DNA of 64,000 bases from Escherichia coli phage Shin27. The stretch lies in the sequence record LC788709.1; one strand, 5' to 3'. Made by a program: the position numbers and the translations under genes. The notes below the pieces were generated by a model. The model had not been told where the DNA came from, did not search any database, and saw only the letters and a program-made list of their open reading frames with translations. Shown in pieces: positions 1 through 39,419 of this stretch (positions are counted from its first letter, which is position 1; every line of letters begins with the position of its first letter).

Positions 1-189
1 TTTTTTTTTTTTTTTGAGAGGGTGCAAAACGAACCTCTTGCATTTTGCGTTTTCATATTGTACATAAGAACAGCCTAAGAATCAGCGAACTGTTAACATA
101 ACAGAACACGCGTTGCGTTGCTAGGATAATCAATGTTCAGGCTTGTTTCGCAGCAATATTTTTCAGTGACAGATTGCACTCCACTTATA

Positions 190-3100
190 CTACGGTAGTT
201 CTGTAATTGTTGGAGCATTTCCGTTAAGCATTGATTTTACAAGGTTTTTCAGTTCATATAACTCATTGCGTAATACGTTAATTTCCTCCTGTTGATTATC
301 AATCTTTGCTTTTTGCTCTTTGAATGCGTTAACAAGAAGTGCGACAACACCATTATAGTTAATGCCTTTGATTGCCTCGCCTTTTGGGTCTAGCTGACCA
401 TCGTTATTCAAAGAATGAACCGCTTCCGGCAAAACCCTTTCAACATCTTGTGCGATCAATCCAGCCTCAATACTATAAACGCTGTTTTCATCTTCAATTA
501 GATTGTTGCGCTTGTAGTAAGTATAACCAGTTAGATAATCAATTTTGTCGGATGCCGTTTCGATCTCTTTTAGATGTGCTTTTAATCTAATGTCAGACCT
601 GCTAACCCAATTTGATGCGCTACCATTTCCAGCACTATCAAAAATAAATTCAGCGCCCTTAACATAAAGATGTGTTTCAGCGCTGCCAGAAGTCCACGGA
701 ACAACATCCATGCCAGCTATCCAATCTTTCCCCCAATAAACAGATTTAAATATGGCAACCGCAGAATCAAATCCAGTGTGCTCAACAAGCAATCCAGACG
801 CACGACTACGCCAGTCGGCAAATGCACCACCCTCAACTTGACCAGCAATAAGAGCGTTTGGATCACCGCGCCTAACTCCATTTACATACATACCCCTTGC
901 GTAATCATCAGCATAAGATGATATGACCCTGTAAGTGTTTATTCCTGATGGAGTCCATGCAAATATTCTCGCTGAATCAGCAAACGCGCTTATGTGACCA
1001 TCACGATCCCATTTAAGACCTGAATCATGATCCCCAATTGCTATAGAGTAATCACCAAGAGCCGATTGAGCATCAGGACTTAATAACATCAATTGCTTAT
1101 CAGATCTTGCTATCCTGTACCATCCACCCCAAGAGCCATTATTGCAAATGATACCCCATTTATTGCCATTCATTGTGGTTGCAACAATATTTCCATACTC
1201 AACATGGCCGTTTGCATTTTTACGGTGAACATGCAATTCATACATCCACCAACCAGAGGCTTCAGGTGGTTGATATGTAACAAGTTCTCCGCTTGAGTAA
1301 TAACCGCTTTCTGCGTATGTTGACATAAACCCAAGAATGTTTGAAGTATCCGGGATGACAATTGCTTGACCACCAACAGGAGTGTTTAAGTTCTTTCTTG
1401 CTCCAACATCACTTGTTGCACCAGTGCCGCCCTGTTGAATTCCAAGAGGAACAAACTGTTGCGTTGCAGTATTCCAATAACCCCAGCCATCATTACCAAC
1501 CGTTAGGTATTTAATTGTATCTGGCGACTGAATAAATGTTTCACCATCACCCTGATTAAACCTGTTAACCTGAAAATTAATTCTCGCTTGAGCAACGTTT
1601 TCAGCACCAGTACCGCCAGCATCAATAGAAAGCGCAGATGTGCTGTTATTGTCATTACGCGTAACGCGCCATTCCCCATTGTTAGCGATCCGTAATTCAT
1701 AAGTCCATGCAGGATTACGAAAAGAATTATAAGCGCCAGCATATTGATCTTTTACAGAATTAACAGCCTCAACTTTTAGCGCCTCCCTTGCAAGGTCTTT
1801 GTTTGCAAGATCATTAAGGTTCTGATCCTTCTTTAACGACGCTTGCATAACCTGTTCTGCTGATGCAGCCGCTGTCTCCGCTCTATCTGCTGCACTGGTG
1901 GCATTAGTAGCTTTCTCTCCTGCTATTGTAGCGCTACCAGCGGCCTCCAGGGCCTTGTCTGTTGCTGTCGTTGCAGCAGTAGTGGCGGTATTTTTAAATA
2001 CCTCTGCTTCGTCTCTGTAGCCTTTGGTTGTGGTCATCGCTTGCGTAGCTGTATTCGCACTACCTGATGCACTTTGCTGAGCTAGCTTAGCAGCGTCTTC
2101 ACTAGCTTTTGAGTTAATTTCACTAGTCTTTGTATTAGTTTCTGAGTTTTTTGCTGCTAATGCTGATGTGGAGGCTTGTGCAGCGAATGCTTCTGCTTCA
2201 TCCCTGAATCCTTTGGAGTCAGAAGCAGAGGCAGCGGAATCAGCAGCATTAGTCTCACTAGTTTTTGCTGCTGCATATGCTGCTGCATTAGTCTCACTAG
2301 TTTTTGCATTAATCTCACTAGTTTTTGCATTAATCTCACTAGTTTTTGCTGCAGCTGATGATTCTTCACTAGTTTTTGCTGCTGCATATGCTGCTGCATT
2401 AGTCTCACTAGTTTTTGCATTAATCTCACTAGTTTTTGCATTAATCTCACTAGTTTTTGCTGCAGCTGATGATTCTATAGCAGTAGTTTCACTAATTTTT
2501 GCTGCAGCTGATGATTCTGCAGCTTTAGTAGCGGATGCAGCAGATTGAGAAGCAGAAATAGCAGACTGAGAAGCAGAAGCTTCAGAAGCTTCAGCAGAAA
2601 TAGCAGATTCATTCTCAGAATTCTTAGCATTAAGTTCTGAAGTCTTAGCAGCTATCTCGGAGTCTTTTGCAGTAGTAGCGTATTCTCCCGCCTCTGTAGC
2701 AGAACCAGCAGCAGCAATAGCCTGATTGGTAGATTCAGTAGCAGATGTAGCAGCATTTTGCTCAGAAGTAGCAGCAGCAGTCTTAGCAGCCTCAGCGTCC
2801 TTCTTAGCTTGTTCAGCTAATAGACGACTCTGTTCAGCATTTTGTGCAGCAAGTTCAGCAGAATCACGGAATCCTTTGGATTCCTCAGCTGACGTAGCAG
2901 AGGCATCAGCACTATCTTTAGATAAACCAGCTTGTCTCTCCGCTTCAGTAGCAGAAGCAGCAGATTGAGTTGCAGAAGTTTCTGAAGAGTTAGCGTAAAT
3001 TGCAGCTAGGTTCTCCGAGTCCTTAGCATTTGTTTCAGATTCTTTTGCTGCAATTTCAGAATCTTTTGCTGCCGCAGCAGAAGCAGCAGAGGCCTCAATA

Positions 3101-3240
3101 GCCCCTGTTAGTTCACTAGCAGTAATAGAACTAATAGAAGTACCTAAAACTACCGTATACTTAGGATATTTACTAGCAGTAGTTGTAGTGTCATCTATGT
3201 TCAGAATCTGCTGTACAATAATTTTAGTTTTAAGTGCCAT
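190..3240 (-). CDS. ltf: L-shaped side tail fibre protein (T5 pb1/LtfA-like) with C-terminal intramolecular chaperone/autoproteolysis domain
   Basis: 1016-aa ORF. The N-terminus (KYPKYTVVL) and the Ala/Ser/Glu-rich AKTSExN heptad shaft are typical of T5-family side fibres. The C-terminus (SDIRLK...GINYNGVVALLVNAFKEQ plus coiled coil) matches the endosialidase-type chaperone (S74) signature. Confidence 0.9.
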   Translation of the reverse strand: MALKTKIIVQQILNIDDTTTTASKYPKYTVVLGTSISSITASELTGAIEASAASAAAAKDSEIAAKESETNAKDSENLAAIYANSSETSATQSAASATEAERQAGLSKDSADASATSAEESKGFRDSAELAAQNAEQSRLLAEQAKKDAEAAKTAAATSEQNAATSATESTNQAIAAAGSATEAGEYATTAKDSEIAAKTSELNAKNSENESAISAEASEASASQSAISASQSAASATKAAESSAAAKISETTAIESSAAAKTSEINAKTSEINAKTSETNAAAYAAAKTSEESSAAAKTSEINAKTSEINAKTSETNAAAYAAAKTSETNAADSAASASDSKGFRDEAEAFAAQASTSALAAKNSETNTKTSEINSKASEDAAKLAQQSASGSANTATQAMTTTKGYRDEAEVFKNTATTAATTATDKALEAAGSATIAGEKATNATSAADRAETAAASAEQVMQASLKKDQNLNDLANKDLAREALKVEAVNSVKDQYAGAYNSFRNPAWTYELRIANNGEWRVTRNDNNSTSALSIDAGGTGAENVAQARINFQVNRFNQGDGETFIQSPDTIKYLTVGNDGWGYWNTATQQFVPLGIQQGGTGATSDVGARKNLNTPVGGQAIVIPDTSNILGFMSTYAESGYYSSGELVTYQPPEASGWWMYELHVHRKNANGHVEYGNIVATTMNGNKWGIICNNGSWGGWYRIARSDKQLMLLSPDAQSALGDYSIAIGDHDSGLKWDRDGHISAFADSARIFAWTPSGINTYRVISSYADDYARGMYVNGVRRGDPNALIAGQVEGGAFADWRSRASGLLVEHTGFDSAVAIFKSVYWGKDWIAGMDVVPWTSGSAETHLYVKGAEFIFDSAGNGSASNWVSRSDIRLKAHLKEIETASDKIDYLTGYTYYKRNNLIEDENSVYSIEAGLIAQDVERVLPEAVHSLNNDGQLDPKGEAIKGINYNGVVALLVNAFKEQKAKIDNQQEEINVLRNELYELKNLVKSMLNGNAPTITELP
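2256..2477. repeat. perfect 2 x 111-bp in-frame tandem duplication inside the side-fibre gene
   Basis: 2256-2366 and 2367-2477 are identical at 110/111 positions. Each unit contains nested 21-bp CTCACTAGTTTTTGCATTAAT-type units. Confidence 0.9.
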
Positions 3241-3662
3241 TATTGAGTTACTCCATCGCTGATGTATACTTTACCTTCCATAATACGGAAAGAATTGACT
3301 TCAGAGCCAATTACATCACGAGTCATTAGGATATCATAATAACCAGCAAAACGTTGTCTTGGGTTATACTTATCACGTTCTTTAGATGCTTTTTCACCAA
3401 TATTAGTAGTGTCTGCAATGGAAAGACTAATTGCAGCAGCACCTTGGGCAGCATCAATAATATGAGTTTTAAAATCAGCTAGAACCTCGGCGTTCTCATC
3501 TAAACTAGATTTAATAGTTCCTCGGAGTGAATATCCGGTTAAGTTAACAGGAACTTCTGTTGGTGGATATACACTGTCATCAACATCCATAAACTGCATG
3601 ATAAGACCATAAGGTACTTTCTCATCAACAACAATATCAATAACTCGGTTTTCTGTACTCAT
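3240..3662 (-). CDS. tail collar protein (T5 p132-like slot)
   Basis: 140-aa ORF between the side-fibre and central-fibre genes. Its stop abuts the start of the next gene. The name rests on recalled T5 gene order only. Confidence 0.55.
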
Positions 3663-3667
3663 TATAA

Positions 3668-5725
3668 TTACCTTATATGGATATACCCACTATTTAGGTC
3701 TATCTTCATCTTGTAGTATGCTTCAGGGTTCCCTGATAATGCAGCATTTCTATCGTAGATTATATTAACACCTATTTGTGATAAGAAGGCATTTCCTGCC
3801 ACAATCTTATCAGCAGTTACAGTTCCATTAACAATCATGTTGCCATGAAGAACCATTGCAGGGTTAATCCATCCAGCCCCGTTCCATTGACGGGTAAATG
3901 CTGTTTGTGGAGCATTACTGTTAAATTGTGTTAAGACATCGTATTTAACTGGAGGTTTTCCAAAGTTATTTTGGAAGAATGCATTAGCCTGTCCATCATC
4001 CCAACCACCTAATCCAGGAATACCCATGGAGTACATCCCAGGACCACGCTGTCCATCATGTCCTATAGTACCTTCAGTACCACTCCACTGAACCACATCA
4101 GACCAGCTAGTACCTTCGAGAAGTTTGTTAGTAACTGGATCAAGTGTACCCGTAGTAGCATAGATATTTTGTGTCATATCTGTACGATTAGGTGGAGTTT
4201 TTGACCAACCAGGAGGTGGATAATCTTGTTCTAGCGGTTTAGCTGGTAGAGATGTTGCTAACTTATAAACAAATACTGTTTGTTTACCCTGTAATCCAGT
4301 ACCAATATCTACGTCACCATTTGGTGTTCCAATTACTACACCACTAGAAATACGTAGGGTAGTACCATCATAACGTATCCATTGTGTAGCATTACCAATG
4401 TCTAATTTAGCTTTGGCAGAGGTATTATCCATGCCCATCCAAATACCAGAGTTATTATCTCCCCAAGATTTACCTTGAGTGTAAATTGCTGGATTATCTT
4501 TACCAGACAAGTTAGTCATAATAAAGTTTGCAGCATTAATATCTCTAGTGATTACTTTACCATCAACGTTAACAATACGGTTTATAGGGTCGAAAGAAAT
4601 AGGTGCTTTACCTTCTTCATCTAGCAGACCAATGTTAATAGCACCAGTAGCTGCATCAATTAGGAATGTTTGTCTCCAGATTTCCCCATCTTTCATGCTG
4701 CCTTTAATAAAGGCATAGTTAACATCAATACCCGTCTCATTGACAAAGCTGTTGTCTAGAGGAGTATCTTCATTCAGAATAAATGTTACAGGAACTGACT
4801 CTGTTATATCTTGTTTATTTGGTCCCCAGGCAATTGATGATACCTTAAAAGTATGTTCAACTTTCCATGGGAATGATATAATTGTTGCAGCTCTGGCAGC
4901 ACCCACGTTTATCTTTTGAGCTTTAGCCCATCCGGTTTTAGCATATTCCTCGGAGTTTATGTAAGTAACCAAAAACTCACGAACGTTAGCACCAGCACCA
5001 CGTTCCCAATCCCACTCAATTCTAACATCATATCGTTCTTTACCATCTGCAATTCGTGCAGCTTTAAAAACAATATCGATAGGTGCGGTAGGAGGAACAA
5101 AGTTATAAGCTACAGTTAGAATACTAGGGAATTCATAGTATCCAGAAGAATCAACTGTAACACCATCAGGCATAGTTACTTGACCAGATATTCTGATCTT
5201 ATAATCTCCGATAGGAACTCCACCAAATTTAATAGTAGAACCTAAAGCCCCAATGTAATATTTAGTCCATGGACTGTCTTCAGTGGCTGTACTTTTTAAC
5301 TCAATAGTACAGTAGCTTGCTTCACCAGTTGTTTCCACAACAACTATCGGTGAGCCCACCCCAACATCCACGGGTTCTGACTCAGATCTTGCTGCAACAA
5401 TTATTGGCTTCTCTTTTGTTTTAAAGTTAGTTTCATTAGAGAGGTTAATACCAATTTTTGCATTTAAAAGTTCTGAGTCAATAATTGAGTCATAAAAAGC
5501 TCCCTGAACCTGATAGGTAGTTGAGGGAGTTAAGTTATTGATCATAACAAAGAAAGTGTCGATTCCAGTGAAATCTCTTCTATCCACTTCTTCGCCAAGT
5601 TTAAGCCAAAATGATCTACCGATAACATCGTAGTCGGTATAGATAGAATGCTGGATATACGCCATAGTATATCCAGTCATAATACTATTTAAGACCATCT
5701 TGGCTGGTGCATTATTCGAAATCAT
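3668..5725 (-). CDS. central straight fibre protein (pb4-like)
   Basis: 685-aa beta-rich ORF directly downstream of the hub gene. Size and position match T5 pb4. Confidence 0.75.
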
Positions 5726-8575
5726 TTAAATAGATGCCCAATCCACAGATTGCTCGCCATTATCACCTTCTGCTCTTATACGGAAGCGTAACTTCCTATT
5801 AATACCTAGAGCATCCTCGTTATGAAGAGCATAGTCTGCCTTATTGTATATCAGTAGATAATCGTAGACATACTGATCTTCAATTCGTACACTTCTTAAT
5901 AAACGATCTAGGTTATCGTAGATTTCGAGAGTGTAGAAGATTCCATCAATAATATCTTCTTCTGGAATTCTATCCCAGGCCAACTTAACGTCTGGTCCTA
6001 CAAACTCCGATGCATCTCCTGAAGCTGTGTTAGTAACCCTGAAATTACTAACGACGCTTAAGTTTTTAGCAGAGTTAAGTTCTACCGATAGTGTTACAGG
6101 AGAACTTCGTCTACCATTAATATCTACAGCTCTAATCTCAAAGACTGCTAAACCAGCAGGTTCTCCAATAATTTCTTGGATCATTCGTAGATTTGGATTA
6201 GTTTCTAGTTGCTGTACTATATAAGGATCAGCATGCCCAGAGTGAACGATGGAGTAATAAACAACGTTATTAGTTAAGCTAGGAAGCCAAGATAGCTCAC
6301 CATTCTTACCAATAGATCCTACTTGTCCACCAGGTGTTGGTGTATACATAAAGTCTCTAGGAGGCAGTACGTTATTACTAACATCAGGAATATCATTACC
6401 ACTATTATCTACCTGTTCAGAGTTAATAAATACATCTTCTCCATACTCTTGTAGAGTAATATTAATCTTGCCTTCTCTTGAGTTCTCAACCTCATCTACT
6501 AGGAAGTATTTCTTATTCCACCCATAACGGTCATAAGTAAACGCTACTGGATCGTTGGGTTCAATACCAATGAAATGGTAAGGTAGAGAGAAAGATAGAG
6601 TTCGAGAGTAACGAGACTTTTTAAGTTCTCTATCAGCAAAACTACGTGCAGTGTAGTAGTTAGTAATGTTTGCAAAGGATAATTGCAGCTTTTTATCTAA
6701 TCCTTTATCCTGCTCTTTAAATATAGAGTTAAAGAATGTAATGGAGTTAGTTTTCCAGCTTAATGCGGGATCTAGTATAGAGGCTTGTACTGAGTTAAAC
6801 TTATTTCTACCAGTAGTATCTGATAGCTCCAGATCACCATAGGTATCTAAGAAGTCAATCTCTAATGGGGTGTTTGAGAACTTCTCAACAGTTATTCTAT
6901 ACTGTCCAGATAAGTTGTTGATAGCACCGCCATAAGACTCTATTAATCCCTGCACGTTTTTAAATACTGACTCAGAGGTATCGAGAATAGTATTCATTTG
7001 AACTATTTGTCTATTCTCTCCTACAGCATCAGTCCATCCAACGTATCTCCAGTAGGGCTGCCAAGAAACCTGATAGGATTCATCAATGATATCCAGGATA
7101 GCTGCTTCTTGAATAAGTTGCTGGAGAGGGAACTGATCAATAGTGATATTAGCACCGTAGCGGTCAGAGGTTAGGTAGTCCAGAGTTTGCCAGATACCAT
7201 TTAAGCTAGTCTTATCAGCAGTTACTCTACCATCTGAATGATAGATCTTAATCTTCTTACCTTGAACTTCAGCGCTAACTTCTGGAATTTCTGTTCTGTT
7301 TTCATTAATAGTAAAGCGAACAATAGCATAAGCAGTATCTAACAGTTTATAACGAGTGTCCCAGTATTCCGGTCCATTCTCATTCATGTTCTGTAGATAG
7401 AAACCTTTCTCTTTTGCAATGTTAACTAGAACATCAGCAGCAGATTGATCAGCCTTACCATGATAAGTCCAGATACGGATATCGCCATTACCATCATTAT
7501 ACTTATATTCCTGTCCATGAACAGAAGGTTCAGAGCTTGGTTGACCAGAAGCAATACGTTGCATGGTATCGCCAGCTACTTTCTTAGTACCAAAGCAAGT
7601 ACGAGACTTACTATCATTAGGATCAATACAGATCATTGGTACATCACCAAAGTAAAAATCTAGGAACCCATCAATCTCACCCTCACAGAAAGCGTATACT
7701 ACATATACGATATTAGGATTATGCAGTTCAGTATCTGCAAATACTGGGACTCCAGGAATTTTCTGAACTCCATATACTACTGGCAGGAATTTAGCAGCTA
7801 AGTTAAAATCAAGATCTACTTCCTTAGTTACAGTCTCATAGTATTTCTTTAGGCTATAGCTTCTAGAAAGACCAAATAACTTTTTCTTAGATTGTAACTT
7901 ATAACGTTCTTCCTGAACCTGATACTTAGCAAGAATAGAAATACTCTTGTTAGCATGAAAGAATCCGTAGTCCTCTTGATATTCAGGTCGTTTAGCACCA
8001 TTAGATGGAACTAATTGGCCAGCAACAATCTCAAGTCCCCTATGGTCAGCATCATCTGTGAAACGTCCGTTTACTCTATCAAAGTCATAGAATTGGTTTG
8101 AACAGTTCCATGTAATAACAGATGTACTAACTCCAGAAGTACCAATGTTATCCTTAATACCACCACCAGTGATTTTACCACGGAAGTAAAGTAAAGGACC
8201 ATTAGTATCTGGATCTACAGGAAGAATGTTACCTTCTTCATCAATAACCGCTTGATGGATTGAAATAGATCTATCTAGGAAGGATACACCATTTTGGACT
8301 AGTTTTAATACTTCATCCTCAGCAGTACCTGTGATAGTAAAAGAAAGGCTACCAATGGAAAGTTTTCTATTTTGTTTATGTGTTGTTATAGACTTAACTT
8401 TACCGGATGTGTAAAGAATACCATTATAAATTACATCCCTAAAATAGTCTGTAAGATAAATGTACGCAGAACTTGATCCGGTAGAGCTTGGCAATTCAAG
8501 AGTAATAAGGCATGCAGTTTTTATTTTATTATTGGTTCTTAGATACTCTCTTGCACTGTCAAGAATTTTCTTCAT
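5726..8575 (-). CDS. baseplate hub protein (pb3-like)
   Basis: 949-aa ORF between the pb9-like and pb4-like genes, with a 4-nt overlap with the upstream gene. Size and order are as in T5. Confidence 0.8.
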   Translation of the reverse strand: MKKILDSAREYLRTNNKIKTACLITLELPSSTGSSSAYIYLTDYFRDVIYNGILYTSGKVKSITTHKQNRKLSIGSLSFTITGTAEDEVLKLVQNGVSFLDRSISIHQAVIDEEGNILPVDPDTNGPLLYFRGKITGGGIKDNIGTSGVSTSVITWNCSNQFYDFDRVNGRFTDDADHRGLEIVAGQLVPSNGAKRPEYQEDYGFFHANKSISILAKYQVQEERYKLQSKKKLFGLSRSYSLKKYYETVTKEVDLDFNLAAKFLPVVYGVQKIPGVPVFADTELHNPNIVYVVYAFCEGEIDGFLDFYFGDVPMICIDPNDSKSRTCFGTKKVAGDTMQRIASGQPSSEPSVHGQEYKYNDGNGDIRIWTYHGKADQSAADVLVNIAKEKGFYLQNMNENGPEYWDTRYKLLDTAYAIVRFTINENRTEIPEVSAEVQGKKIKIYHSDGRVTADKTSLNGIWQTLDYLTSDRYGANITIDQFPLQQLIQEAAILDIIDESYQVSWQPYWRYVGWTDAVGENRQIVQMNTILDTSESVFKNVQGLIESYGGAINNLSGQYRITVEKFSNTPLEIDFLDTYGDLELSDTTGRNKFNSVQASILDPALSWKTNSITFFNSIFKEQDKGLDKKLQLSFANITNYYTARSFADRELKKSRYSRTLSFSLPYHFIGIEPNDPVAFTYDRYGWNKKYFLVDEVENSREGKINITLQEYGEDVFINSEQVDNSGNDIPDVSNNVLPPRDFMYTPTPGGQVGSIGKNGELSWLPSLTNNVVYYSIVHSGHADPYIVQQLETNPNLRMIQEIIGEPAGLAVFEIRAVDINGRRSSPVTLSVELNSAKNLSVVSNFRVTNTASGDASEFVGPDVKLAWDRIPEEDIIDGIFYTLEIYDNLDRLLRSVRIEDQYVYDYLLIYNKADYALHNEDALGINRKLRFRIRAEGDNGEQSVDWASI

Positions 8576-9186
8576 AGACTTTCCCTCAAGGAAAGTGAAA
8601 TACCAGTATATGTACCATTACTATTTAACGTAGAGCCAAAACTGTCTCCGTTCATTAATTTAGTTCTAAACAGAATACCATTAAATACCGGTTTCTCACT
8701 ACCCGTAGTAGTAATGAATAGATCAGGATAAACACTTATATTCCAAGTATTTCCTGCTGTGTTGATAGAAGTGATTTTGTACACTTTTGGATGGTTGGAC
8801 AATTTAAATAAATCGCCTGGTTTAGGCAGTCCACGAAGTGTACCTTTAGTGTCCATAATAACTATTGAACCTTTTTGTCCGGCAGGAATATTTACAGCAC
8901 TAGTATCACCACGAACTCGGAAAGCCTCATATTGTGGTAATAACACATCAATATAGCTACCTGTTCTTTTATAATCTAGAATGAATGAGTCTAATTTAGC
9001 AAATTCATCTGGGAATAATTCTGGATAAGAGATATTAATACCCCAATATTGAGCAGACACCTTAACCTCCCTAACTTTACCATTAGGTAATTCATCACGA
9101 ATCATAGGGTCATTGTCTACTAAGTTAACGCTTTCAAAACCTAACCCTGATAGCTCTGGGTTCGTGTATGGGTCTGGTAGTCTCAT
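8572..9186 (-). CDS. distal tail protein (pb9-like)
   Basis: 204-aa ORF immediately after the tape-measure gene and a promoter-like site. The position matches T5 pb9. Confidence 0.75.
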   Translation of the reverse strand: MRLPDPYTNPELSGLGFESVNLVDNDPMIRDELPNGKVREVKVSAQYWGINISYPELFPDEFAKLDSFILDYKRTGSYIDVLLPQYEAFRVRGDTSAVNIPAGQKGSIVIMDTKGTLRGLPKPGDLFKLSNHPKVYKITSINTAGNTWNISVYPDLFITTTGSEKPVFNGILFRTKLMNGDSFGSTLNSNGTYTGISLSLRESL

Positions 9187-9212
9187 AGTTAATTTCTCCT
9201 CTTAATAACAAT

Positions 9213-9241
9213 ATTATAATAGGATTGGAAAATTTTATCAA
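9213..9241 (-). promoter_or_regulatory. sigma70-type promoter upstream of the pb9-like gene
   Basis: Coding strand reads TTGATA, 17 nt, TATAAT. It follows the pb2 terminator. Confidence 0.55.
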
Positions 9242-9258
9242 GAAATTTTTATTTTTCC

Positions 9259-9289
9259 ATAAAGAAAAGGAGGACATAAAGTCCTCCTC
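9259..9289 (-). terminator. Rho-independent terminator after the tape-measure gene
   Basis: Coding strand reads GGAGGAC-TTTAT-GTCCTCC followed by TTTTCTTT. Confidence 0.7.
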
Positions 9290-9294
9290 CAGTA

Positions 9295-12200
9295 TTAAGA
9301 ATTACCAAGTGATTTCAGGGTGGTTCCATTCTCATTAAGAGCCTGTTCTACGGCATCCCTGAAAGCAGCACTGTTGCTCGAAGCAAAGTCTCGGAAGCTA
9401 GCCGCATCCATCGTACTGATGTTCAGCACAATAGGTCTACCCGATGTACCCTTTGAAGATCCTTTGAGTTCATCAGTAGGAGTAGCCTTCATCGGAACCA
9501 TAGGAGTGATTACTTCGGTACCATGTTCACCCATCTGGTAACTAACTCCAGGATACATATTACCACCTTCTGCACGGGGTACGAAAGAGTTAGCATTACC
9601 AATCCCTTGATCTCCTCGAATATAAGAAAGCTCACCTGCGTTAGCCGACATAGAAACGTCTACGTTCTTCTGGCGCTCTCCAAGAGTTAAGTAACCAGCT
9701 GTCTCAGCACCAGAGTCCCCAATAGAAGACATACCAGATGCAGAGGATGCTTGAGCAAGAGCCATAGCACCTGCTAAACCAGCCGCAACCATCAGAGGAA
9801 TAGAGAATGGATACGGAACAGCTGTTGCTGCCTGCATCACCGCTACTGCCGTCTGGATAATGATTTGCTTCTTAGCCGCATCTTGCTGGATCTTGAGCTT
9901 TTCAGCCTCTAACTTCTTGATCTTAGCTTTAGATTGCTCAGATTTACCATCACGTTTCTGTTCTGCTGCAATAGCTGCATCAATAGCACTTACCTGTTGA
10001 CCAACACTATACTGAATCATTGAAGATACAGTTTGCATACCAGCCGCTACTAGAGAAGTGGTATCCAGAGATCCTTGTGAAAACTGGATCATAGCATTAG
10101 TTAGGTTACCCATGCTTTGTGCTACAGCAGTTGCTTCGGAGTTCAGTTCAGACAGCTTAGAAATAGCCTGGTCATAGGATGCCATTCTATTCTGCATATC
10201 CATATTTGCTTTATCATCTCCTTCCAGTCCAGTTGTTGGAGTGTAAACACCACCAACAGAAGAAGTGACTTGCTGCTGCATCTGAGCATCACGTTGCATC
10301 TTAAGCTGTGCTAGAGCTGCCGAAGTTTCTTGGATTTTACGCTTATACTCTTCCTGAGCTTGTGCATTTCCTTTTGTAATTTCCAGTAAACTTTGGTACA
10401 GAGCTTGCTGTTCGGTTAGTCTCTGAGATTCCCCCGTAACGTTTCTGCTAGTCTGTGAAATATTAAGAGCTCTTTCACGTCCAGAAGCCATTTCCCTTTG
10501 CTGATCCTGACGGAATTTCCAGATTTCACGTTCAATTTGTGCCTGAGCTCGTCTTGATTGTTCAGCTTCCTTCTGCTTATCAATCTGCTTGGAGTACCAC
10601 ACATACTTCTCTTTCTCGATAGTCAGTTCAAGGTTCAACTGAGCTAAACGATATTGAGTATCTGTCATAGTACGGTTATTCAGGAGAGCAATTTCACGAT
10701 CAACACCAAGAATCTTATCGGTATAGTCCTTAACCTTCTTCTGAGCTTCCATACCCTGGTTAGTGATCTTGATACGTTCTAGCTGAATCTTAGCTATCTC
10801 ACCTTCGATTGCTTTGTTACCCTTGTTAGTTTCTAGGACACGCTTAAGAGCTGCTTCCTGTTCTTCTAACTGTTGGATTTCCAGACGTCTACCAGCTTCC
10901 TGTGCTTTCTCTTTGTCCTTAGTCTGGCTATACACTTCGGCAATCTTCTGCTGAACTTCTAGCTGATTCTTAGTCTCATTACCAGTTAATTTTACATAAC
11001 CAGCAAGAGCTTGTGAAGCAGTCTTCATCTCACTAAGAGTATTATACCCTAAGTTCAGGCTCTTAACATACTCATCAGCATTTTTACCAGTACCCGCGGA
11101 TAGAGACTCAATAGTCTTAATCGTATCTGATAAGGATGCACTAGTTTTAGCCGCAGTATTAGTATTCTGAGCGATGTTCTGGATATCGTTAGCTAAATCA
11201 CTAGCAGTTTTCTTAGCCTGATCATATGCTTTCTGCTGTTCTGTCAGTCCTTTCAGAGTTGCAGAGTTGAAGTCATAAACCGCATCAGGGTCATTTGCAT
11301 CTTTCTGTAGGTTAATTTGCTTCTGGAATTCTGGATTAGCCTTAGCAGCTGCAGCACCAGCAGCTTGGTATGCCGATTTCCATGCATTAAGATTGCCAGT
11401 TGAATCCTCTACTTCCTTATCAAGACGCTCTACCTGGAGAGCTAATGCAGCAGTATCTGCAATAAATTTCTGGTTTTCTTCAGAAGATCCTATGCGAACT
11501 CCTCCTACTTCAAAACCTCCTGCAGCTAACCCTACCGGTGCACCTTGAGCAACTAAACGAATAGCCCCTGCTGTAGATGCATCTGCTTGCTGCATACGCT
11601 TATCTAGATCAGCTTTTAACTTATTACGCTTTTCTAGAGATTCTTTGTACATATCAAGAGCTTTATTATATCCTTCCTCAGAAGCGGAAAGACTTAAAGC
11701 TACAGCACCAACGTTAGTTGGGTCAATCTGACGGTTAGTTTCTTCCTGTGCTCTAGCAGCAGAGGCCGAGATAGATGCTTGAGAAGTATAGAACACTGCG
11801 TTGATAGAATCAATTACTGGCCCTAAATACTTAGCAGCAGCCTGTTGAACCTTTCTCAGTGCAGCATCAGCATTAGCAGCAAACTGTTCCCAGGGGGTTG
11901 CACGAAGTACATCATCAAGATAGCCGAAACGTTTAGTAGATTCAGCGATAACTGCGTTAGCATATGCTTGTTGCTTCTGGAAAGTAGAGAGACTATTAAC
12001 GTTATATGTAATACCTGTGTTAGCAGCATTTAACTGTTTAACGTAGTCTGCGTAAGCATCGTTAAGACGAATAGTAACACCAAGTTCGTCCAGAAGTTCG
12101 ATTTCTTGTTTAGATACACCCTTGATTACACGGTTAAGTGCATCAGTCATATCAACACCAAGAACAGCAGCAGCACGACGAGCTACTAGACCAAATTTAT

Positions 12201-22359: not shown

Positions 22360-23676
22360 TTATTTCCCACGGGAAATTGAGTAAATTCCATAACGCAGTG
22401 CGTCACAAAGGTGAGAGTTCGCATCATGACGTGGTTTTTCACGTGATAATTTCTCTTCGCCTTCCTGGAAGTCCCACTTGTAGTTCGCTAGGGCGTGGAT
22501 CAATGAGGTACATGAAGCATCTACGATGATCTTACCTTGCTGGAACAGTGCTTGCAGGCATGCCAAACCATCTAGGACAGATTTCTTAGCAGGTGCAGAA
22601 GCGATTTCATGTTCATAGGCTAAGTCCTGACGGAACTGAGCAGCAGCGGAGTCTACAAATATACGATCAACATTATAACGATCTATGCAGTGTTGGATAT
22701 AAGCAGCGTGTTGAGCTGTAGTCTTTTCAGCTTGCTGATACTCTTCCAGTACGTAGTAAATATCTTCATCGTAGTGATACTTAATAGTAAGAACTGCTGT
22801 AGGATCACGATAACCAACGTCGATACCAAGTAATGTTTCGAATGCTTCATCATCTTTAAAGAAGTGACGCATACCCTTGAGGTCTTTAACATGCTCTATA
22901 GCATTGAAAGTATCAAAGATCTGACCTTCGAATACGGAGAAGTCAGCTTCATATTCTTGGCGGAAGTAGTTTTTACTAACAGTACGACGCGCTTCCTCGA
23001 TATCGTTCAGGTCAGCACGTGGGTTATCACGATATGTACCATGAATGGATACCCAGTTAGGTAACGTTTCGTTAAATCCTTTCTCGTAGAACTCTTTGAA
23101 CCAGTTACCACCACGAGGTGTGGAAATAAATAGAGCTTTAGAGTTTGGCTTATCTAGGGTAGGACGTAACTGAATATCGAAAGCTGCACCACCAACGTCG
23201 GAAATCGCTGCTTCGTCAAAAATGATGAAGTCATATGAACGACCAACCGCGGAGTCAGCCTGAGCCGCAGAAGCTAGTTTAAAGAGAGAACCATTCGCCA
23301 GTTCAATCTCTTTATCTTTGGCATTCTCACGTTCAGTCTGTAGTCCATACTTCTTAATAAGACCACGAATCTGAGACCAACCGATATTAGCTAGGGAGTA
23401 GTTAGGTGCAACTACCAGCACCTTCACATTAGGTTCCAGAAGTTTTAGGAACCCAAGTGTATATGCGATGAATGACTTACCTACACGACGTGATACACAT
23501 GCAGTCACGAAGCGGTGTTTTGGGTCTTCCAGCGCATTAATGATTGCAATCTGAGGGGCATTAGGTGTAATCCCCTCTTGAGCTAAAATGCTAGAGACTG
23601 GCAGACGGAAGAATCGTTTGTCAATACCAAAGTCAATAACATCTGTGGTGTTAATATAGTCTCTAGAGACTTTCAT
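22360..23676 (-). CDS. terL: terminase large subunit
   Basis: 438-aa ORF with Walker A-like VSRRVGKS and Walker B-like YDFIIFDEAA, followed by a nuclease-type C-terminal half. Confidence 0.93.
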   Translation of the reverse strand: MKVSRDYINTTDVIDFGIDKRFFRLPVSSILAQEGITPNAPQIAIINALEDPKHRFVTACVSRRVGKSFIAYTLGFLKLLEPNVKVLVVAPNYSLANIGWSQIRGLIKKYGLQTERENAKDKEIELANGSLFKLASAAQADSAVGRSYDFIIFDEAAISDVGGAAFDIQLRPTLDKPNSKALFISTPRGGNWFKEFYEKGFNETLPNWVSIHGTYRDNPRADLNDIEEARRTVSKNYFRQEYEADFSVFEGQIFDTFNAIEHVKDLKGMRHFFKDDEAFETLLGIDVGYRDPTAVLTIKYHYDEDIYYVLEEYQQAEKTTAQHAAYIQHCIDRYNVDRIFVDSAAAQFRQDLAYEHEIASAPAKKSVLDGLACLQALFQQGKIIVDASCTSLIHALANYKWDFQEGEEKLSREKPRHDANSHLCDALRYGIYSISRGK

Positions 23677-24158
23677 TATCTCTTACCTCCTCCTGCTAGA
23701 GCGGTAATAAGATTCATATAGTTTTCGTCACCACTTCCAGCAATAATATTATTCTGAATATTAGTCTGGTTAGCCGGAGTACGGGCTGCTGCCTTCACTT
23801 TCTCCAGTTCTACCATCATTTTCATTTCTTCCATCTTCATCTTGTGCGCCTTCCAGAGAATATCCATGATATCCTGGTCAGAACCCATGCCAGTTTCTTC
23901 AAGTTCTTCCAGCTTACGCTTGATAACTTCGTCAAGAACTCCGAATAAGCGGTCACGATTACGGAAGCCACTTTCCATAAAGATATCGTTGAGATAGTTT
24001 TTAACTTCCCCACGATTCATTATATCACGGAATGCAATCTCGGACATTCCAAGACTACGAGCGGCGGCAGGAACATCACTACCGCACTGTAAATAGGCTT
24101 CAATAACATCCATGCCTTCGGGAGACATGAGATCGGGAACTAATACATCATTTGCCAT
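23676..24158 (-). CDS. terS: terminase small subunit
   Basis: 160-aa ORF whose stop overlaps the terL start. An N-terminal HTH-like segment ([17 protein letters not shown]) is present. Confidence 0.7.
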
Positions 24159-24168
24159 ATATCCTCCT

Positions 24169-25950
24169 TTAGGTTAGGCGTTGAACTGTTACACGTAGTC
24201 TTGGCAAGAAAACAGCTGCCGCTTCTGCAGCGTGAATGATAACACCCAACTCAACGTTGCCATTACCAAGGTTTTTAATAGTATAAATATATCCGTTCCT
24301 ACGGAAAGCAAACTCATCAGGCCTACTAGCCCAAGTCTGTGTATAACTATAGGAAGTTGTACTGTGATAAGGTACTAGATATCCAGGTGGCAGAGTAAGA
24401 ATCTGGTGGAATACACCATCACCAGCTGTATAACTTTGTTGACGTCTACCTTGTACCTGCCAAGCGCTACCGCCGTAAGTACGCACAGGCATTCCAGCAG
24501 TATTAAGATTACCCATAATAACTTCAGTAGTTAATATAACAGTAGAGTGAGCATTTGGTAATCCCAACCAAACTGTGGCCAAAGGTGTGTAGAAGTCACC
24601 AGCACCAGGGTAGGATGGAGTTATATCGTCCCCTACATAAGTACTTGCAACGTTGCCTGGGAATAACCTGAGTGGTACAGTACTAGGACTCCACACAGGT
24701 CCATGTTCATTACCAATGGAGTTGGTATTAGTATCTACATACCATTGTTTACCTACACCAAATTTATATAAGCTAATTTGAGAAGCTGCACCCCCATAGT
24801 TAACAGGAGACCACAACCCGCCATTACTAGAGCCGATAAATTCACATCGTGCAGTATTATCACCAAAAACTCCGGTATACGCAGCGTTATTACCAACATA
24901 CTCCATATCAGGGCGATAGCCTAAGTTTCCGAAAGCATTCTGGTTAATAAATTTATAGCCTGTATTTGGTAGGCTAACACCTTTAATAGTAAAATTAGAC
25001 GGAGATATTAGGATATCTGAACCGGTAAATGGATTACCAGAAACTCCCATACTACCATTAGAATAGCGCAGATTTAGCACATACCAAATAACCTTAGTTG
25101 GCGTAACGTTATACCAGTCCTGTACATATACCTTTCTAGCAGACTGAGCAGCCATATTAGAAGTAGAACCTCTACAAACATATATTTTTTCTGGGTATGC
25201 AGGAGATTGGTAAAGAACGTTTACGTTATCTGGTAGTACGCCTTTTTTACCTGCGAAGCCACGAATATTAGAACTACAAACATAAAACCAATCATGGCCT
25301 CTACCAGCAGAACCAATAGGCGCCTGCCAGTTAGGTTCCCAATAATCTGCGTTACCACCATCTAAAGGAACAGTAGAGACACCAGTTGGAAAACCCATAA
25401 GACTCCAGGCTCTGGCAATGGCTTCACCAGCAGAAACACCACCAGGTCTAAAGATCTGGAAACCAGAGGACTGTAGTAAACTGCCTCCAGAACCTTGCCT
25501 AGCAATAGATTCCTCATGACCAAGACCACCATTATAGATATAAGTACCATGAGCTAAACTATCACCGATCGCAAAAGCAGATGTTACAGATAATTCAGCA
25601 CCAGCACGTGGTGGGTCTTCAAAGAATGATAAGAACTGGCCAACCTGAGATTGAGTACCATTCAGAAATCCACGATGAGTACCGTTTATCTCAATAGCAG
25701 TTAATATAACTCTACCCGGATCATTGGATTTAATATTTATAATATCCCAAGGCATCTGAGTAACAAAGTATCCATTACCTGCATTACCTAGGGCTGCTTC
25801 ATAAGTCCCATCAACTAGGACAAATGGCATATCTGAGTGGAAGATACTATTAGTATTTGGAGAGTAGTGCTGATTTATATCACCACCATTAGCAGCGTTT
25901 AGAGATAATACAGTTTTACCATCACTAAATTTTCCTGCGAAAAAACTCAT
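24169..25950 (-). CDS. oad: receptor-binding tail protein (pb5/Oad-like)
   Basis: 593-aa beta-rich ORF starting MSFFAGK. It is the last late gene and lies divergent from the Llp-like lipoprotein gene, as in T5. Confidence 0.8.
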
Positions 25951-27300: not shown

Positions 27301-27413
27301 GTTAGCGCTAATTACCAATTCTCGAAATCTCATAAGATTACACATGAAGGTGTGCCCAGAGGTTACCTAGATGAGAATGAGTCTCATTACCGCCCCGGTA
27401 CTTAGCAAGCTAA

Positions 27414-35479: not shown

Positions 35480-35536
35480 GCCTTTACACCGAAACGGTGG
35501 GTTGAAAATTTTCCCTGATTTCTAGGAGGCGTTAAA

Positions 35537-35764: not shown

Positions 35765-35810
35765 TTAATAAAGGGGGTATATTATCCCCTAATTTCTAGG
35801 AGCTAATAAA

Positions 35811-36995: not shown

Positions 36996-37000
36996 TAATA

Positions 37001-37031
37001 GCGGGGCGCAACTATCGGCCCCGCCTTTTCT
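37001..37031 (+). terminator. Rho-independent terminator at the end of the plus-strand cassette
   Basis: GCGGGGC-N10-GCCCCGC followed by CTTTTCT. Confidence 0.65.
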
Positions 37032-37140: not shown

Positions 37141-37160
37141 TACTGTATATTTATACAGTA
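37141..37160. promoter_or_regulatory. LexA (SOS) box, near-consensus
   Basis: TACTGTATATTTATACAGTA differs at one position from the E. coli consensus TACTGTATATATATACAGTA. Confidence 0.65.
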
Positions 37161-37168
37161 GAATAACC

Positions 37169-37177
37169 TGTGGATAA
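37169..37177 (-). promoter_or_regulatory. DnaA box (perfect, reverse orientation)
   Basis: The plus strand reads TGTGGATAA. An 8/9 box, AGTGGATAA, lies at 37181-37189. Confidence 0.6.
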
Positions 37178-37241
37178 GTCAGTGGATAACGCCTCAAAAT
37201 CGCTAGGATTTTGTCAAGTCAAATCGTGCTGTTAATAAACC

Positions 37242-37250
37242 TGTGGATAA
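37242..37250 (-). promoter_or_regulatory. DnaA box (perfect, reverse orientation)
   Basis: The plus strand reads TGTGGATAA. Confidence 0.6.
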
Positions 37251-37283
37251 CTTAAATAGCAGTGTTTCTCACTTCGCTTTCTA

Positions 37284-37413
37284 AATGCGAATCATTCTCA
37301 TTATGCGACTCATTCGTATTCAATTCTGTAAATGATAATCATTCCCATTCCACTTTCTAAATGCGAGTAGTTCTCATTCGCATTCAACTTCTCAAATGCG
37401 AATCAATCTCATT
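37284..37413. repeat. five copies of a 19-bp imperfect palindrome (AATGCGAAT-N-ATTCTCATT family)
   Basis: Copies lie at 37284-37302, 37303-37320 (degenerate), 37331-37349, 37360-37378 and 37395-37413. A lone half-site lies at 36729-36741. Confidence 0.75.
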
Positions 37414-37463: not shown

Positions 37464-38065
37464 GTGCAAATCCGACATCTGCCCCCACGGATTACGTGCC
37501 AGCGTGCATGTGCGAATCCGACAATTTTTGGTAGTGTGCAAATCCGATGGGAAATATTTTTTATATGTGCGAATCCGACAATGAATTTTCCTAAAAACTC
37601 CAGCAATCCGCAACTGCGATGCAATCCAGCTGGATTTACTAGAGTATGCGCAAATCCGACATGAGTTTATTTGTGCAAAACCGACAAGATTTTTGTGACT
37701 TCGATGAGAGGGTGTGTGATTGTGAGGGTTTGGGGAGAAGTGCGAATCCGATGAGATTTTGGGAGGAACTACGGAAGGAGCAGCGGTGATGGTGCTTTAG
37801 CACCGGTTTGCTGCATTTTTGAGGATAATGCGGGATGTTTTGGCTAGAATTGAGATTAGGGGAGATAAAGCGAAATTTTATTAGCAAAATGGGGCAAAAT
37901 CGCTTGACAAGTGAAAATTCCTGTGGCTCTAAAAAACTCAGGCAAATATGGGCCTTCGGCCCGAAATAATGCTGCTATTTTCAGTGTTCCTAAAAACTTT
38001 GGAGACTCCTATCAATGTGCAAATCCGACCATAAATTTCTAGAAACACAGTGTGCAAATCCGATA
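37464..38065 (+). repeat. iteron-like array: nine same-orientation copies of GTGC(A/G)AATCCGA(C/T)N
   Basis: Copies start at 37464, 37510, 37536, 37567, 37648 (variant), 37673 (variant), 37740, 38017 and 38052. Spacing is irregular and no ORF is supported. Confidence 0.85.
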
Positions 38066-38224
38066 GCAATTTCCAGAAATGTGTTTTGGAAAAATGTCTC
38101 CTAGAAATAACCGCCCTCCCTATAACCGCCCTGTATTAAACCGCCTATTGCTGGAGTTTCTAGGAACATGAAAACCGCCTGAGTTGGCGAGAGTTTTCCT
38201 AGAAACTTAGGAGTCTACTAGAAA
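38036..38224. repeat. six TTCTAGAA-type palindromes interleaved with four (T/A)AACCGCC(C)T direct repeats
   Basis: The TAG-centred sites lie at 38036-45, 38071-80 (degenerate), 38098-107, 38157-66, 38195-205 and 38214-24. The AACCGCC repeats lie at 38108, 38123, 38137 and 38171. Confidence 0.75.
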
Positions 38225-38492
38225 GTGTTGTGCTATCCTAGCAGATGAGCGGCAACAGGTGTATCATCTTGAACATTAATTTATCTATTCAACAGTATTA
38301 GTTTTTATATAAGTATAAGATCCCCAGGGGATTGTGAGAGATGCTCCACCCCTGGGATACGAATTGCGTGAGATGGTACAAAACTTCTGAAGATTTCCCT
38401 AGCCCTCCGACAAGCTACGGGGGAAATAGAAGTTTCCCATCCACCATCCGTATCCGGGTGGATCTCTTTATTCTATGTTATTTCATAGAGTT

Positions 38493-38521
38493 ATTATAAC
38501 ATGCAGAAATCATAACGTCAA
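38493..38521 (-). promoter_or_regulatory. sigma70-type promoter reading into ORF-free hairpin-rich DNA
   Basis: Coding strand reads TTGACG, 17 nt, TATAAT, just downstream of the stop of the 296-aa gene. Confidence 0.5.
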
Positions 38522-38528
38522 GTAGAGT

Positions 38529-39419
38529 TTATTCATCGAACATGAGATTTCCTTTCATCCCCATCTCCGCATACTCCATGAGTTCTCCTAGGGATCTCAC
38601 AGGGTAATCTACTTTACTGAAGTTATCATAGATCTTACATGAACTCTCGTACAACTCGTTAGGTATCTGCAATTTGTTATCAGTTAGCTTCTCATAACGT
38701 GTAGAAGATTTTGTACCTTCAAACAGAACTGCAATAACTGCGGCGATTTGTTTGGTAAGATCATCTGCTCCTAGAATTATTCTATTAATAGCAATCGTTA
38801 CTTCATGCTTAGGTTTCACAGGTGGAAGGATAGGCTTGAGATCCTTAGGTAAAGGTTCTGTTCCTAGGAATCCTTCTTTTGTGCGGAACCAATAATTATC
38901 TAGATCAGATATTGTCTTAGACTTATTCCATATAGTGAAGCAAGGTTTATTTCCTTCACGATCTCTGTATTCACGAACTGGAAGATAATGATCAGGGAAT
39001 GAGTTGAGTGCATCATGCATTGGTGAGCCTGTCTTTTTAAATGACAAACCGTACAACTCATTATAATTCATAACTTCATCTTCATAAACATGGAAATCTT
39101 TATATGCTGGAAGATTAAACCATTCCTGAAGTGAATGAACTGCAAAACGTTGTGCCCAAGCATGCATCACAAGAACTCTGTACTCTTTTACTTCATCTTT
39201 TGGAGAAGTACCTCTAACTGTTCTAGCTGACCGAATACAGAACATCTCAACAACACGTCTCTCGTTTAAAGAAAGCTCAGAGTAACAACGTTCATGGCAA
39301 CCTTCTAGCATTTCTAGAAGTTCACGTAGTTTCTCTACATCGACCGGTGGAAAAGGTCTCTCTTCCACCGCGAATTTACCAACTACACCTTTCGGCTTTC
39401 TATTACTATAAAATCCCAT
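38529..39419 (-). CDS. hypothetical early protein
   Basis: 296-aa ORF, the last gene of the leftward early transcription unit. Confidence 0.6.
   Translation of the reverse strand: MGFYSNRKPKGVVGKFAVEERPFPPVDVEKLRELLEMLEGCHERCYSELSLNERRVVEMFCIRSARTVRGTSPKDEVKEYRVLVMHAWAQRFAVHSLQEWFNLPAYKDFHVYEDEVMNYNELYGLSFKKTGSPMHDALNSFPDHYLPVREYRDREGNKPCFTIWNKSKTISDLDNYWFRTKEGFLGTEPLPKDLKPILPPVKPKHEVTIAINRIILGADDLTKQIAAVIAVLFEGTKSSTRYEKLTDNKLQIPNELYESSCKIYDNFSKVDYPVRSLGELMEYAEMGMKGNLMFDE

Follow-up and report, generated by a model that had tools for sequence, protein, structure and literature searches.

Short repeated sites beside the cuts that make genome ends are known from phage lambda, in which the R-sites of cosB form a terminase recognition array, and from SPP1, in which pacL and pacR do so and terminase sites lie on both sides of the cut. 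In T7, short-repeat arrays (SRL and SRR) and the promoters phiOL and phiOR are said to flank the 160-bp terminal repeat. Here we analysed a 64,000-nt stretch of DNA from Escherichia coli phage Shin27 (LC788709.1; the whole of this stretch is referred to as the window) and describe a non-coding block at 38036–38224 that carries AACCGCC direct repeats and CTAG half-palindromes close to the end of the left terminal repeat (TR). The block lies within the counterpart of Repeat Region 3 of phage T5, which spans 9194–10409 in that genome, overruns 270 bp into the unique genome and is conserved among T5-like phages, according to a comparison of 25 of them (Davison 2020, bioRxiv 10.1101/866236). Earlier accounts of this injection stop signal region are, as cited in that preprint, those of Heusterspreute et al. 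1987, Wang et al. 2005 and Davison 2015. The text of the preprint gives the repeats no role in terminase action or packaging, and in papers from 2020–2026 the conserved repeats here are still without a function. In this stretch, T5 records mark nothing but DRD copies 7–9; the CTAG half-palindromes and AACCGCC units go unnamed. Repeat Region 3 itself has been described before; its motif families, with their fixed offset from the TR end and their kinship with a left-end box beside terminase genes, appear to be previously undescribed. The locus bears on two questions about T5: how its 10-kb TRs are cut and then restored, and what halts the transfer of DNA at 8%.

A repeat array at a fixed distance from the terminal-repeat end

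The window phage is T5-like and belongs to the Demerecviridae. Its 1.5-kb non-coding stretch at 37030–38530 matches hundreds of T5-like phages, with E. coli phage Wa28 as the top match (identical across 37930–38330), and has the hallmarks of Repeat Region 3: DnaA boxes (37168–37251), palindromic ATGCGAAT..TCTCAT units (37253–37413) and nine DRD repeats (TGTGCRAATCCGA). The region is homologous to T5 9194–10409 and syntenic with it, having the last pre-early gene on one side and the first leftward early gene on the other. The block aligns to approximately 10245–10480 of T5 (AY587007), DRD copies 7 and 8 are common to both phages, and the repeats follow one another in the same order.

We placed the TR end by homology with three annotated genomes (T5, Shivani and EscoHU1). 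The left TR of T5 ends at 10139 (AY587007), between ...CTGTGGATC and TAAAAAC, a position that corresponds to base 37929 of the window; for Shivani and EscoHU1, the repeat ends given in the annotation fall at 37930. The second T5 record (NC_005859), in which the TR is annotated as 1–10219 and the injection stop signal (iss) as 9140–10149, gives the same TR end after correction for an 80-nt offset, and its iss lies wholly to the left of that end. The right TR boundary inferred in this way, 37929/37930, coincides with the end of a conserved TR-end box, TTGACAAGTGAAAATTCCTGTGGCTC (37904–37929, + strand), which is also found in Klebsiella phage Roth37 and in Pectobacterium phage My1, the annotated TR end of which is at the homologous place. 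The left boundary of the repeat maps to 27353/27354, which makes the TR approximately 10.6 kb long. The array block therefore occupies positions +106 to +295 to the right of the TR end, in unique DNA and beyond the first-step-transfer (FST) fragment as usually estimated (7.9%, approximately 9618 in T5).

Four AACCGCC motifs, all on the + strand, start at 38109, 38124, 38139 and 38173 (+180, +195, +210 and +244 relative to the TR end, and so 15, 15 and 34 nt apart). The first two belong to the array core on the + strand at 38098–38132, in which CTCCTAGAAA is followed by TAACCGCCCT, CCCTA and TAACCGCCCT again (units R1 and R2); the third unit, R3, is TAAACCGCCT (38137–38146, + strand), and the fourth, R4, is AAAACCGCCT (38171–38180, + strand). 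There are 11 copies of AACCGCC on the two strands of the window, and the presence of 4 in 71 nt compares with an expectation of 0.004 (Poisson P(≥4) of approximately 1e-11). The half-site YCTAGAAA/TTTCTAGR occurs 15 times in the window, with 5 occurrences within 38030–38230 versus 0.03 expected (P of approximately 2e-10). CTAG by itself is frequent in this phage (293 copies in the window), and the six CTAGs in 203 bp are only marginal, at approximately 0.1 after correction for scanning. The same-strand AACCGCC units and the YCTAGAAA half-sites are thus far above chance, in agreement with a previous sequence-only reading of the block, which had suggested that its sites are not random AT-rich DNA; all of the sites that it listed exist, within 1 nt of where it had placed them.

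To compare relatives, 24 T5-like sequences were aligned and the motifs were mapped in 42 distinct ones, using as the anchor a hairpin that is outside the motifs. Measured from the TR end, the map of sites is nearly constant across the 42 sequences and the order of the repeats is kept. DRD repeats at +87 and +122 are present in all full-length sequences, with TTTCTAGAAA at +107 (29 of 42) between them; CTAGAAATAACCGCCCT, which overlaps the array core, is at +172 (41 of 42), and a second AACCGCCCT is at +195 in nearly all (AACCGCCCTGTAT in 41 of 42). Optional third and fourth copies begin at +210 and vary among sequences; R3 is present or absent depending on the relative. They are followed by a middle segment and then by AACYGCC at around +243/+244 in most full-length relatives, the position of R4. 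Additional CTAGAAA sites lead to the distal GTGTATCATCTTGAA, found in 42 of 42. Every AACYGCC copy is on one strand in all 42 relatives, and the number of AACCGCC copies ranges from 1 to 5; such single-strand orientation together with variable copy number is typical of protein-binding repeat arrays. Between the third and fourth AACCGCC, the segment 38147–38190 exists in at least three unrelated versions of equal length, so that the fourth unit stays at around +243/+244 from the TR end.

The block has 72–94% nucleotide identity among relatives, and the neighbouring gene on its right is approximately 45% identical at the protein level or is replaced. We compared protein and block identities in place of a neutral baseline from third-codon positions of that gene, which was dropped because only 4 of the 42 relatives share the gene at the nucleotide level. 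Of 448 phage records, 409 match the 41-mer at 38096–38136 with an identity of 95% or more.

Parts of the array extend to lineages that are more distant. BLAST similarity between Roth37 and the window halts at the TR end; Roth37 nevertheless keeps the succession past its TR-end box and a different hairpin, with four DRD-like repeats, TTTCTAGAAA, TAACCGCCCTCCCC, AACCGCCCTGTATAG and two further CTAG sites. In My1, which is in another subfamily, the annotated left repeat ends at 12854, just past the box TTGACAAATGAAAA; GAAAAATGTCT...CTAGGGAATAACCGCCCTCCCCCTAAACCGCCCTGT is located 135–190 bp beyond that end, and the motif pair TAACCGCCCT/AAACCGCCCT lies 165–190 bp beyond this independently annotated TR end. 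A third lineage, represented by the IMG/VR contigs L227, L228 and L241, has AACCGCCCTGTATAG approximately 130 bp from its terminal box. Judged from these comparisons, the AACCGCCCT pair is the most deeply conserved part of the array, and conservation of the CTAG palindromes is mainly at the genus level. The sequence-only reading had named as its refutation a lack of conservation of either motif family, or of their order, in related phages; both families and their order are conserved across T5-like genomes and in two more distant lineages. The reading had also set the AACCGCC sites on alternating helix faces by their 15-bp phasing. This is not supported: as copy number varies among relatives, the phasing is that of a tandem unit, CCCTATAACCGCCCT, which expands and contracts (1–4 copies), and with units spaced by 16 bp in My1 and by 31 bp in Roth37, a strict geometry of this kind is not conserved. 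At scores of 30 or more, Tandem Repeats Finder yields no such array, as the 15-bp unit has too few copies.

Wider scans for the pair added little. A search of viral contigs for AACCGCC-N7-9-AACCGCC returned almost only chance matches, and the longer pattern AACCGCCCT-N3-25-AACCGCCCT was unspecific, returning in addition to T5-like phages and My1 unrelated repeat families, such as AAAGGGGGCAAACCGCCCTCCCAGGTACGGTTAACCGCCCT. In six IMG/VR contigs (L257, L261, L266, L281, L284 and L297), ...AAAGGGGGCAAACCGCCCTCCCAGGTACGGTTAACCGCCCT... belongs to an unrelated intergenic element that occurs several times per contig, with a conserved CATGAATTAACTATAGCG-like word upstream.

The ACCGCCC core at the left genome end

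A 25-bp left-end box, ATGAGAATGAGTCTCATTACCGCCC (27371–27395, + strand), lies 18 nt inside the inferred left TR boundary and ends in the ACCGCCC core of the array units. The core is found as TTACCGCCCC at +35 from the left boundary in the window, as TTACCGCCCT at +35 in My1 and as TAACCGCCAC 36 nt inside the left end of T5. WACCGCCC has 6 copies on the two strands of the window (128 kb), and 3 of these lie within 200 bp on the right of a TR boundary: the copy at 27388 is at +35 with respect to the left boundary, and those at 38109 and 38124 are at +180 and +195 with respect to the right one. The ATGCGAAT..TCTCAT units of Repeat Region 3 and the palindromic half of the box form a single family.

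Exact matches to the 25-mer were found in 81 IMG/VR stretches, which represent 43 non-redundant viral lineages, most of them metagenomic. Conservation extends approximately 45 nt upstream of the box (AAGTTGTACGTG, then a GC-rich spacer) and not downstream, where the flanks are unrelated; in the window, the upstream motif at 27330–27352 is AAGTTGTACGTG/AAGATTACACATG. In complete genomes, the box is at positions 18–42. Contigs that bear the box encode distant homologues (30–60% identity) of the small and large terminase subunits of the window, and in many lineages the gene for the small subunit (TerS) starts 147–480 bp from the box. In the window, this distance is approximately 3.2 kb: the terminase genes (large subunit, 438 amino acids; small subunit, 160 amino acids, at 23676–24158; both within 22360–24158, − strand) are 3.2–5 kb to the left of the left TR boundary, and a receptor-binding protein gene (24169–25950) is in between. 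The array block is approximately 14 kb from TerS on the collapsed map. A position beside TerS is the usual placement of a terminase recognition site, and the left-end box is a candidate terminase recognition or cut module. To the extent of the searchable literature, the sequence of the box is in no paper, and TAACCGCCCT is in none in a phage context.

Three further searches concerned the box. Copies of ACCGCCC at +1.9 kb from it in some metagenomic contigs were dismissed, as they are within coding sequence. DRD arrays, which might mark right TR boundaries, were sought in the metagenomic box loci, and these loci fall short of such arrays or lack them. A tRNA-like reading of the box was rejected, as ARAGORN found nothing there.

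A proposed role in genome-end cutting and rival explanations

We propose, with a probability of roughly 40%, that the array is a protein-binding platform for the cutting of TR ends and for packaging. The block would be the unique-DNA side of a cis-acting module around the right TR boundary, that is, in the region of the concatemer junction. The AACCGCC(C) units, which share one orientation, would be putative binding sites of a factor that processes genome ends in a sequence-specific manner, the simplest candidate being the small terminase subunit; the same factor would read the ACCGCCC core of the left-end box, 18 bp inside the left genome end. Multiple copies of this factor on the array and a second factor, bound to the DRD repeats and CTAG half-palindromes, would build a nucleoprotein complex; alternatively, the DRD and CTAG sites may shape the DNA. 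The complex would place a nuclease to cut approximately 180 bp upstream, at the TR-end box, which would set both the right genome end and the length of the TR. Binding at the sites, the identity of the protein and its part in cutting or packaging are all predicted here from sequence. The sequence-only reading had suggested a composite nucleoprotein structure in connection with transfer arrest; a multi-site platform seems reasonable given non-random and conserved sites, and the evidence favours end processing over injection arrest.

The block is within a few hundred base pairs of the cut, and a short motif is repeated at both ends of the TR. These are features of the lambda cosB and SPP1 pac systems, in which short repeated sites lie a few hundred base pairs from the end-making cut and related sites are near both termini; the left-end box of many relatives is next to the small-terminase gene, and that of the window is approximately 3.2 kb from it. 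Unlike cosB and pac, with which there is no sequence similarity, the locus described here involves a direct TR of approximately 10.6 kb with two separate cuts, and its candidate sites are known from sequence alone. The layout also resembles that reported for T7, in which a TR is followed by an array of short direct repeats in unique DNA and then by a strong promoter nearby. This likeness is one of reported layout only, as T7 is of another phage family and has other motifs, and the promoter of the T5-like phages is of host sigma-70 consensus and is aimed at the repeat.

Several points weigh against a role in end cutting. A core of 7–8 nt is all that connects the two TR boundaries; a chance match to it near one given site has a probability of roughly 0.003–0.01, and its presence in T5, the window phage and My1 does not amount to independent samples. 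The distance from the cut is unequal, at +35 on the left and +180 on the right. If packaging runs from right to left, as is expected from injection of the left end first, the array would be on the non-packaged side of the cut; the array side of the right-hand cut is probably non-packaged, unlike that of lambda cosB. The TR end of the window phage is itself placed by homology, and some database records put TR ends 60–700 bp further to the left, which probably reflects a reliance on coverage-based methods. Conservation of the CTAG half-palindromes is shallower than that of the AACCGCC units.

The strongest competitor, which we consider about half as probable, is that a factor of the phage or of the host binds to the array and halts DNA transfer once the first 8% has entered, or that the array is the A1/A2 site for resuming transfer. 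The block adjoins the region traditionally called iss and is part of the same conserved Repeat Region 3, it occurs once per virion genome, only after the left repeat, and the literature has yet to define how iss works or exactly where it lies. T5 tails, reported to be 160–250 nm long, hold approximately 470–735 bp of DNA; with the shear point (approximately 9618) at the cell surface, the DNA at the portal would be at approximately T5 10100–10400, which overlaps the block. However, the block is outside the TR, the estimated FST fragment and the iss of NC_005859; this location, some 106 bp to the right of the TR end, makes the link to transfer arrest weaker than the sequence-only reading had implied. 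Ejection of T5 DNA in vitro can run to completion, and its pauses were correlated with the positions of nicks rather than with the block. Nor would arrest explain why the ACCGCCC core is at the extreme left end and, in relatives, beside terminase genes; that the array and the left-end box have this core in common points to genome-end processing over injection arrest.

A bolder proposal joins the two functions and is improbable as it stands. The block, and not the region of DnaA boxes and inverted repeats inside the TR, would be the physical determinant of the injection stop: with approximately 9.6 kb inside the cell, the array would be at or near the portal, a capsid-internal or portal-associated protein on it could form a plug until release by A1/A2, and the same ACCGCCC-binding factor would first have tagged the DNA when it was packaged. 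An injection stop of this kind would couple the formation of genome ends to two-step injection.

That the array acts in transcription is unlikely. Its sites might be operators, a terminator or an insulator at the junction of pre-early transcription, which runs rightward, and early transcription, which runs leftward, or might belong to a non-coding RNA from a conserved leftward promoter. A near-consensus sigma-70 promoter with an extended −10 element (TTGACG-17-TGnTATAAT; 38493–38521, − strand), just past the stop codon of the last leftward gene, points left toward the block, and 37 of 42 relatives have an equivalent promoter aimed in this way, which lies +580 to +730 from the TR end despite a different flanking gene. 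There are hairpins at 37950–37962 and 38323–38357 and terminator-like hits on the − strand, and the + strand at 38096–38185 is C-rich (27 C versus 16 G) and would be rut-like in a rightward transcript. Against this, pre-early transcription already meets an intrinsic terminator at approximately 37000–37030, and a terminator-like hairpin (38332–38320) is situated between the promoter and the block. No family in Rfam 15 matches: the covariance-model search gave only four sub-threshold hits, to eukaryotic snoRNA or miRNA families or to PhrS (E of 0.14–0.92). Variation in copy number and alternative middle segments do not suit a structured RNA, and the core shared with the left-end box would go unexplained. 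The equivalent promoter is also present in Roth37 and probably in My1.

We give little credence to the idea that the repeats have no sequence-specific function and persist through slippage, as a recombination hot spot or by recent common ancestry. Variable copy number, alternative middle segments and the mosaic breakpoint at approximately 38330 do indicate active rearrangement, but the order of motifs is kept in lineages in which the surrounding DNA no longer aligns, and the 41-mer core is far more conserved than neighbouring coding DNA.

A replication origin, with the AACCGCC units as iterons, is the least probable explanation: like plasmid and phage iterons, the units are direct repeats of one orientation and variable copy number near DnaA boxes (37168–37251), with an AT-rich stretch (38270–38320) and a strong promoter nearby, but they are 15 bp in length (typical iterons are approximately 17–22 bp), out of helical phase, present in 1–5 copies and tied to genome termini, the DnaA boxes are approximately 900 bp away, there is no adjacent initiator gene (the flanking proteins have neither a known function nor a Rep-like domain in Pfam and PHROGs searches), and the literature, as summarized by Davison, locates the origins of T5 near the centre of the genome.

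For the platform that we favour, the fixed distance outside the right TR end, the conservation across subfamilies and the core shared with the left-end box would turn a catalogue of repeats into the hypothesis of a shared end-recognition code. Such a code, if true, would help to set the genome ends of the hundreds of T5-like genomes that are deposited with arbitrary starts.

Individual sites and flanking features

The hairpin GGGCC-TTCG-GGCCC (37950–37962) is 21 nt past the TR end, and its stem is invariant in the 42 T5-like sequences. At the equivalent spot, Roth37 has a hairpin of unrelated sequence, CACGGTG-ACA-CACCGTG (1937–1953 of L172), which suggests that the structure itself may matter. 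Upstream, at the start of the TR-end box, TTGACA at 37904 was considered as part of a rightward promoter and rejected, as the −10 element is not conserved and is absent altogether in My1. An TTCCTAAAAAC site (37987–37997, + strand), which is related to TTCCTAGAAAC, is between the hairpin and DRD copy 7 in 37 of 42 relatives; a second copy of TTCCTAAAAAC is at 37588.

The CTAG-type sites are more heterogeneous than the six TAG-centred palindromes of the sequence-only reading. All six sites are present, but TTTCTAGAAA at 38036–38045 is the sole perfect 10-bp palindrome among them, and TTTCCAGAAA at 38070–38079 is not TAG-centred; the others, CTCCTAGAAA at 38098, TTTCTAGGAA at 38157, TTCCTAGAAAC at 38196 and TCTACTAGAAA at 38214, are imperfect and have in common the half-site YCTAGAAA or its complement. 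Nor do the palindromes make up a cleanly distinct third family of sites, as had been suggested, because the first two are the 3′ tails of extended DRD repeats (TGTGCRAATCCGAC-N5/6-AATTTCYAGAAA); the motif arrays as such are present and conserved. DRD copy 7 (TGTGCAAATCCGAC) and the perfect palindrome form one composite (38016–38046, + strand), which is complete in 33 of 42 relatives, the palindrome being found in 29 of 42. DRD copy 8 and the weak palindrome form another (38051–38080, + strand), in which relatives have TTTCCAGAAA (9), TTTCTGGAAA (18) or the half-site only (7).

Inside the variable middle segment is TTTCTAGGAAC (38157–38167; TTCCTAGAAA when read on the − strand). Further to the right, TTTCCTAGAAAC is followed by TTAGGAG and TCTACTAGAAA (38195–38224, + strand), with TTCCTAGAAAC and a GGAGTYT...AAAGTG motif each in 39 of 42 relatives. 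The conserved distal end of the block runs from ATCCTAGCAG through GTGTATCATCTTGAA (38235–38273, + strand). Nucleotide similarity to most relatives ends at a sharp mosaic breakpoint at approximately 38329/38330, downstream of which the gene at 38529–39419 (− strand) is approximately 45% identical or swapped for other genes. No DNA-binding candidate emerged among the flanking proteins when they were searched against Pfam and PHROGs.

Within Repeat Region 3, TACTGTATATTTATACAGTA (37141–37160) fits at 19 of 20 positions what we take to be the consensus of the E. coli LexA (SOS) box. It directly precedes the paired DnaA boxes (37168–37251), corresponds to ‘palindrome D’ of T5 and is also found in Roth37; LexA is unmentioned in Davison’s preprint (bioRxiv 10.1101/866236). 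Elsewhere in the repeat, the CTAG-containing word ATTTCTAGGAG (35518–35528 and 35792–35802) is 8–9 nt ahead of the ATG of two small pre-early open reading frames (35537 and 35811) and thus serves as ribosome-binding context. CTAG is also part of each unit of a tandem 21-bp array at 2082–2453 (ATTAATCTCACTAGTTTTTGC and variants), which is probably a repeat within coding sequence and unrelated to the block.

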